Below are positions 12,233-13,197 of a DNA stretch of 31,114 nucleotides, one piece after another. A program made the position numbers and the translations under genes. The notes beneath the pieces were generated by a model that saw only the letters and a program-made list of their open reading frames with translations, was not told where the DNA came from and made no database searches. The stretch comes from a virus, in the UHGV virus genome UHGV-2113044. The stretch is one strand, 5' to 3'. Each line of letters starts with the position of its first letter. Positions within the stretch are counted from its first letter, which is position 1.

Positions 12233-12673
12233 ATGAAAAAACTAACCTTTGAAATTCGATCTCCAGCACATCAGCAAAACGCTATTCACGCGGTACAGCA
12301 AATTCTTCCAGACCCAACCAAACCAATCGTAGTAACCATTCAGGAACGCAACCGCAGTTTAGACCAGAATCGAAAGCTTTGGGCTTGCCTTGGTGACGTC
12401 TCTCGTCAGGTTGAATGGCATGGTCGCTGGCTGGATGCAGAAAGCTGGAAGTGTGTGTTTACCGCAGCATTAAAGCAGCAGGACGTTGTTCCTAACCTTG
12501 CCGGGAATGGCTTTGTGGTAATAGGCCAGTCAACCAGCAGGATGCGTGTAAGCGAATTTGCGGAGCTATTAGAGCTTATACAGGCATTCGGTACAGAGCA
12601 TGGCGTTAAGTGGTCAGACGAAGCGCGACTGGCTCTGGAGTGGAAAGCGCGATGGGGAGATCGGGCTGCATGA
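12233..12673 (+). CDS. ninB: NinB (Orf family recombination mediator)
   Basis: 146-aa frame starting MKKLTFEIRSPAHQQNAIHAVQQILPDP... matches lambda NinB. Confidence 0.9.
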   Translation: MKKLTFEIRSPAHQQNAIHAVQQILPDPTKPIVVTIQERNRSLDQNRKLWACLGDVSRQVEWHGRWLDAESWKCVFTAALKQQDVVPNLAGNGFVVIGQSTSRMRVSEFAELLELIQAFGTEHGVKWSDEARLALEWKARWGDRAA

Positions 12674-13197
12674 CTATCAAATCAAATACGCCAGCACACG
12701 ATAAGGACTGCTGGCAAACGTCGCTCTGGCTTTTTGATGCGCTGGATATTGAGTTTGGATTCTGGCTGGATTCAGCAGCGAGCGACAAAAACGCTCTGTG
12801 CGCTCACTGGCTAACTGAGGCTGACGACGCGCTAAATTCTGAGTGGATAAGCCACGGTGCAATCTGGAATAACCCACCGTACAGCAATATCAGGCCGTGG
12901 GTGGAAAAAGCCGCTGAGCAGTGCATACAACAGAGACAGACGATAGTGATGCTTGTGCCAGAGGATATGTCTGTCGGATGGTTCAGCAAGGCTCTGGAGA
13001 GTATTGACGAAGTTCGCATCATTACTGATGGACGGATTAATTTTATCGAACCATCGACAGGGCTGGAGAAGAAGGGAAACAGCAAAGGTTCCATGTTGCT
13101 GATTTGGCGACCGTTCATCAGTCCTCGACGGATGTTTACTACCGTATCCAAAGCGGCATTGATGGCGATCGGGCAGGGCGTCAGGAGGGCAGAATGA
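12670..13197 (+). CDS. Phage orphan DNA N6-adenine methyltransferase (Dam-like)
   Basis: 175-aa frame starting [15 protein letters not shown] (ATGA overlap with the ninB stop) containing the NPPY catalytic motif (WNNPPYSN); occupies the ninC/ninD slot. Confidence 0.75.

Follow-up and report, generated by a model that had tools for sequence, protein, structure and literature searches.

A predicted stand-alone GATC adenine methyltransferase of the M.EcoVT2Dam type in the nin region of a mosaic lambdoid prophage

The nin region of the virus genome UHGV-2113044 carries a gene, dam, for a predicted phage N6-adenine DNA methyltransferase of the M.EcoVT2Dam type. The genome was analysed as a single stretch of 31,114 nucleotides, called the window below. 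The gene occupies positions 12670..13197 of the plus strand and, as read from the window sequence, is comprised of 175 codons, from an ATG at 12670 to a TGA at 13195-13197. It is assigned from hidden Markov model (HMM) matches, identity to a gene of phage VT2-Sakai and a fold predicted by AlphaFold. Upstream lies ninB (12233..12673, plus strand), which encodes the 146-residue Orf recombination mediator (PF05772, E-value 6e-55) and is near-identical to lambda ninB. Downstream lies ninE (13194..13370, plus strand; 58 residues, PF05322, 4e-43), which is near-identical to the ninE of both lambda and VT2. The ninB TGA (12671-12673) shares an ATGA with the dam ATG, and the dam stop shares another with the ninE ATG (13194-13196); the ninE/ninX junction at 13367-13370 is likewise an ATGA. 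GGAG-type ribosome sites are found at about 12656-12659 and 13183-13188. The overlaps suggest that ninB, dam and ninE are translationally coupled. A first-pass annotation of this DNA had placed a 175-residue open reading frame (ORF) with an NPPY motif at the same coordinates, between ninB and ninE, and the overlapping ATGA junctions on both sides agree with it.

The dam protein matches the Pfam family PF05869 ("Dam") with an E-value of 7e-63 and 211.7 bits against a cut-off of 28.1, over residues 4-169 and 167 of the 169 model positions. The NCBIfam equivalog TIGR01712, "phage N-6-adenine-methyltransferase", is matched at all 165 of its positions (1.7e-77, 258.6 bits, cut-off 97.05), and phrog_111 with an E-value of 1e-85. 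The match is far above chance because the HMM E-values range from 1e-63 to 1e-86 and the ratio of non-synonymous to synonymous change (pN/pS) is 0.087 relative to VT2. The earlier identification as an N6-adenine DNA methyltransferase is borne out by the full-length matches to PF05869 and TIGR01712, both above the curated cut-offs. With this family the protein shares a minimal architecture of about 170-185 residues. Homologues of the family were found by tblastn in 1,874 of 50,697 phage records. Its distant members, from other Escherichia and Klebsiella phages and from Vibrio and Lactococcus phages, are only 30-42% identical; specificities can be transferred neither to nor from the window protein.

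M.EcoVT2Dam, the product of VT2-Sakai orf32 (NP_050531) with copies in 933W-type Shiga toxin (Stx) phages, phi24B, mEp043 and SfI, has the same length of 175 residues and the same NPPY motif, and is identical to the window protein at 170 of 175 residues (97%). The phi24B protein is also identical at 170 of 175 residues. The five substitutions relative to M.EcoVT2Dam are P18S, V60I, V92I, V112I and A175E. At the DNA level there are 21 differences between the genes, 16 of them synonymous and five non-synonymous, which gives the pN/pS above; by this comparison the window gene is under purifying selection overall. The M.EcoVT2Dam gene likewise lies between ninB and ninE and overlaps them at its start and stop codons, but the upstream ninB is the lambda allele in the window and a divergent VT2 allele in VT2-Sakai. 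Unlike the Stx phages that carry M.EcoVT2Dam, the window phage has no stx and combines lambda/434-type early genes with myovirus-type late genes. DNA that is 95-99% identical across the whole gene is present in the same ninB-dam-ninE slot of 244 phage records, which include Stx1 and Stx2 phages, mEp043, SfI, PA28 and CP-1639. In these records the gene is mostly annotated as dam or DNA N-6-adenine methyltransferase, and it overlaps ninB and ninE. At identities above about 96%, the window's 2-kb arrangement is absent from the complete E. coli genomes.

In lambda, ninC (290 residues) and ninD lie between ninB and ninE. A three-way alignment of the window, lambda and VT2-Sakai showed that the window follows lambda through ninB, switches exactly at the ninB stop to a sequence 96% identical to VT2-Sakai dam, and returns to lambda at the start of ninE. 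By this alignment the dam insertion is a textbook mosaic joint. The first-pass annotation had described dam as a replacement of ninC and ninD, which is correct relative to lambda but does not hold in general: dam and ninC occur together, in that order, in Salmonella phage Oslo and in certain E. coli prophages. The surrounding genes P, ninB, ninE, ninX, ninF, ninG, ninH, the metallophosphatase and Q all match Pfam families, ren was recognized by its identity to lambda, and gene O also belongs to the standard lambdoid neighbours of dam. No restriction endonuclease gene adjoins dam, as both flanking genes, ninB and ninE, overlap it, and the best PADLOC models for the dam protein are those of orphan methyltransferases (oMTase). 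Three minus-strand ORFs without a Pfam family (6930-7808, 8485-8958 and 17953-18894) fall only into PHROGs of unknown function and match no PADLOC defence model. The absence of a partner restriction endonuclease noted earlier is thus upheld by neighbours that are all standard nin-region genes and by these three ORFs, and the status of dam as an orphan methyltransferase is supported.

The sequence motifs are those of an adenine methyltransferase. The catalytic motif IV, N68-P69-P70-Y71, was read directly at 12871-12882 (plus strand) and follows strand 64-68 of the structural model; N68 and P70 are invariant in 46 aligned sequences, 45 of which also retain P69 and 45 Y71. A motif I-like segment, F31-W-L-D34-S-A36-A-S38 (12760..12783, plus strand), coincides with model strand 31-36 and is presumed to be the strand that binds S-adenosylmethionine (SAM); F31, D34 and A36 are invariant. 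A motif X-like segment, W15-Q16-T17-S18, is encoded at 12712..12723 (plus strand), where Ser18 (TCG) stands in place of a proline (CCG in VT2) that all 45 aligned homologues have. The residues that are invariant among the 46 sequences include N68, P70, D34, A36, G121, R122, F125, K139 and G140. Invariant or near-invariant residues outside the catalytic motifs are S5, T7, D13, W15, G121, R122, F125, N137, K139 and G140.

The AlphaFold model, built from 46 homologues, has a predicted local distance difference test (pLDDT) score of 89 and a predicted template modelling (pTM) score of 0.86. It consists of a single alpha/beta domain with the class I methyltransferase fold, the C-terminal end of which is formed by strands 141-146 and 155-160 followed by a single helix, 161-174. 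The best fold matches among DNA enzymes are gamma-class adenine methyltransferases: M.TaqI (score 9.6), M.BseCI (9.3), MmeI (9.2), CamA (8.7) and type I HsdM (8.7-7.7), and Foldseek gave concordant results. The motif order, X (WQT(P/S), 15-18), I (FWLDSAA, 31-37) and IV (NPPY, 68-71), corresponds to the gamma arrangement. The model contains no C-terminal target recognition domain, and no gene for a specificity subunit lies nearby. M.TaqI, M.BseCI, MmeI and type I HsdM, in contrast, have a large C-terminal or separate recognition domain or subunit, whereas the window protein has only the catalytic core and one helix. As modelled, the dam protein is a minimal catalytic domain of the gamma type without a separate target recognition domain. 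A sequence search of the PDB found no relative, the best E-value of 0.32 being spurious.

The window protein differs in several respects from the Dam enzymes of E. coli and phage T4. These belong to the alpha class and carry DPPY, whereas the window protein carries NPPY, has no match to PF02086 (MethyltransfD12, alpha class), is about 100 residues shorter and lacks a recognition domain inserted between the motifs. Only 104-107 residues superpose. The likeness is one of functional convergence on GATC, with no homology beyond the common fold. The description "Dam-like" in the first-pass annotation is apt for the target, given that a 97%-identical enzyme is reported to methylate GATC, but not for the ancestry, in view of the missing PF02086 match and the gamma-class best folds. 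The non-specific adenine methyltransferases Hia5 and Hin1523 were considered as members of the family and rejected, as the paper that describes them gives DPPY, FxGxG and an alpha-type layout. The 2023 report of a prophage rRNA (ribosomal RNA) methyltransferase (PMC10810198) was considered as a description of the window gene and was also rejected: that protein is of the MT-A70 type with DPPW and is gp5 in the numbering of its phage. This Stx-prophage enzyme, M.EcoPA8orf6770P/M.EcoGV, resembles the window protein in being prophage-borne and annotated as a GATC adenine DNA methyltransferase, but it prefers 16S rRNA and needs a partner protein, PNB-2 (PMC10810198). The window protein, with NPPY instead of DPPW, belongs to a different family and has no Pfam match to MT-A70.

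The target of M.EcoVT2Dam is given as 5'-GATC-3' in PMC6602927, which cites Radlinska and Bujnicki (2001) for it. Because the window protein is 97% identical to the enzyme described there, it would be expected to transfer methyl groups to N6 of the adenine in GATC, and the sequence comparisons taken together indicate that it is very probably a stand-alone SAM-dependent DNA N6-adenine methyltransferase, an allele of M.EcoVT2Dam with GATC as its target. The window itself contains 95 GATC sites, fewer than the 139 +/- 10 expected from dinucleotide-preserving shuffles. Among the 4-bp palindromes only CTAG is more strongly depleted, the Markov ratio for GATC being 0.58. The depletion points to a GATC-related pressure on the sequence; it is seen even though the phage has a GATC methylase of its own.

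Several points weigh against this assignment. Ser18 sits in a motif presumed to contact SAM, and the allele could be weakened. The PF05869/TIGR01712 family is without a solved structure. The GATC specificity, as it is cited in PMC6602927, goes back to one study of 2001, in which over-expression was probably used. A different phage "Dam-like" enzyme, of the MT-A70 type, was found to prefer rRNA (PMC10810198). The benefit is conjectural since the E. coli host already has a Dam of its own, and selection on dam may be relaxed because the lineage carries a frameshifted O and an IS30-family insertion.

The first of these points concerns a single residue. In alignment column 18 proline is found 45 times and serine once, in the window protein, while W15 and T17 are kept. 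The exact 175-residue Ser18 protein was found under three NCBI accessions and in at least 23 public contigs from independent samples, so that Ser18 is not a sequencing error. All contigs with the exact protein represent one and the same prophage context and lineage, which comes from several metagenome and sequencing-run samples, one of them a human gut metagenome. An exact search of one-genome-per-species contigs with the 36-nt context of the Ser18 codon gave no match.

The same lineage has a split gene O, which in the window forms two ORFs, 10282..10806 and 10692..11174. The frameshift is caused by a 7-bp deletion relative to lambda (AAAAGAA, one copy of a short repeat) at about 10733/10734, in the A-rich part of ori immediately to the right of the four iterons. 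Of the contigs from other samples, the three that reach O (L004, L005 and L009) have the same split into 174 and 123/124 residues, which identifies it as a trait of the lineage rather than an error of assembly. Replication of the prophage may be defective, or a two-piece O protein may be in use. An IS30-family transposase (HTH_38 and rve integrase core) is encoded at 29774-30922 on the minus strand, within the late/tail gene region.

The prophage may thus be partly defective, which bears on the possibility that dam has lost some or all of its activity and is decaying along with a defective prophage, with P18S in WQTP crippling SAM binding and the gene kept by vertical inheritance with the host clone. 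Decay is favoured by the proline found in all 45 homologues, with serine in the window protein only, by the single prophage context of every contig with the exact protein, by the O split through the 7-bp ori-region deletion in L004, L005 and L009, and by the transposase in the late region. However, dam keeps an uninterrupted reading frame, and its four remaining substitutions either are conservative or affect the C-terminal residue (three changes of V to I, and A175E). Of the 21 nucleotides that differ from VT2, 16 are synonymous changes; Thr17 and all the catalytic residues are kept, and a change of proline to serine beside a helix N-cap is often tolerated. Decay is considered unlikely.

Two further possibilities, considered jointly, are improbable. 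One is that Ser18 marks a natural variant of motif X with altered behaviour, fixed in its one prophage lineage, which might lack activity, bind SAM with a changed affinity or be relaxed in its choice of target. The other is that the domain-less enzymes of 175 residues read GATC by an undescribed mode, either through a hairpin and the N-terminal tail or as a dimer. Such a mode is conceivable because the family is without a solved structure.

It is very improbable that the true substrate or specificity is something other than GATC DNA, such as RNA or a relaxed or different DNA motif, and that the reported GATC activity is an over-expression artefact. The 175 residues hold no recognisable target recognition domain, and there is the precedent of the Stx-phage "DNA adenine methyltransferase" that, with its partner, prefers 16S rRNA (PMC10810198), but that enzyme is of a different family (MT-A70, DPPW, gp5), M.EcoVT2Dam is listed as GATC-specific (PMC6602927), and GATC is depleted in the phage. 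That dam is the methylase half of a restriction-modification system, with an unrecognised nuclease among the three minus-strand ORFs without a Pfam family, is scarcely credible, because these ORFs lie 3.7 to 5 kb away on the opposite strand in other operons, have no PADLOC match, belong to PHROGs of unknown function and in one case have a Nun-like C-terminal peptide as in 434, while the immediate neighbours ninB and ninE both overlap dam and the same dam occurs in many unrelated mosaic contexts.

A consensus scan found a pR-like promoter, TTGACA-17-GAAAAT, at 9566..9594 (plus strand, 10 of 12 matches), located as in lambda between the gene of a cI-like repressor (8886-9515, minus strand) and cro/cII/O. 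This promoter probably gives rise to the rightward early transcript that runs into the nin region. Directly upstream of ninB, a terminator scan found an intrinsic terminator of the tR2 type at 12185..12218 (plus strand), a hairpin AGGCCTGC...GCAGGCCT followed by the T-run TTTTATTTGG, which is identical to lambda at the aligned position. Because this terminator precedes ninB, expression of ninB, dam and ninE would, by analogy with lambda, require N antitermination. The dam gene would then be a delayed-early, N-dependent gene of the pR operon, made only during lytic growth or induction, and ninB, dam and ninE would be translated as a chain through the overlapping ATGA junctions. A screen of lysogen cultures for expressed prophage genes picked up the phi24B dam, for which a regulatory part in lysogeny has been suggested but not demonstrated.

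In the proposed mechanism, SAM would be bound by motif X (WQT-S/P) together with the D34-x-A-A strand, and the flipped adenine by NPPY. The task of a separate recognition domain would probably fall to a conserved hairpin spanning about residues 121-140, of lower confidence in the model, and to the conserved N-terminal tail, both of which would read the DNA. During lytic growth of lambda the host Dam is limiting and the packaged DNA is under-methylated; persistent hemimethylation is a target of MutH and SeqA. If the Ser18 allele is active, as we infer, the likely benefit would be complete GATC methylation of the fast-replicating phage DNA while host Dam is limiting. The packaged genomes would then be resistant to restriction of the MboI/DpnII type and would not remain hemimethylated.

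The window as a whole is composite. The early region, from the integrase gene to Q (window positions 1-17000), is 97-98% identical to lambda/434. The late region (16600-29800), with genes for the terminase, portal, capsid and tail sheath, is similar to that of phages of the myovirus type, namely vB_EcoM-606R2 and Salmonella SEN34. By sequence similarity the genome is a mosaic of a lambda/434-like early part and a myovirus-like late part. The ORF at 6930-7808 (minus strand, 293 residues, phrog_12139, unknown function) lies between N and an ea10/ssb-like gene; it ends in a Nun-like transcription-termination peptide of the kind annotated in phage 434, and neither Pfam nor PADLOC gave a match. The antisense ORF at 17953-18894 (minus strand, 314 residues, phrog_30882, unknown function), also without a Pfam or PADLOC match, is flanked by the lysis genes and the gene for the small terminase, a typical moron position; it overlaps the plus-strand terS ORF at 18518..19069 and may be spurious. 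On the exo-xis/b-region side, an ORF of 272 residues at 2047-2862 (minus strand) encodes a dATP/dGTP pyrophosphohydrolase domain (PF04447) and DUF551.

The window dam is already known: it is the same gene, in the same slot, with a published specificity and an automatic annotation. Publications from 2001 onwards describe the gene, where it lies in the nin region and which site it methylates, GATC; hundreds of phage genomes have it annotated. The label "Dam" hides a separate family of minimal methyltransferases without a solved structure or an obvious recognition domain. How GATC is recognized without such a domain, and what a GATC methylase gives a phage in a Dam+ host, are questions for the whole family. 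The only point specific to this window is the Ser18 variant, a naturally occurring change with which the conserved WQTP motif can be put to the test.
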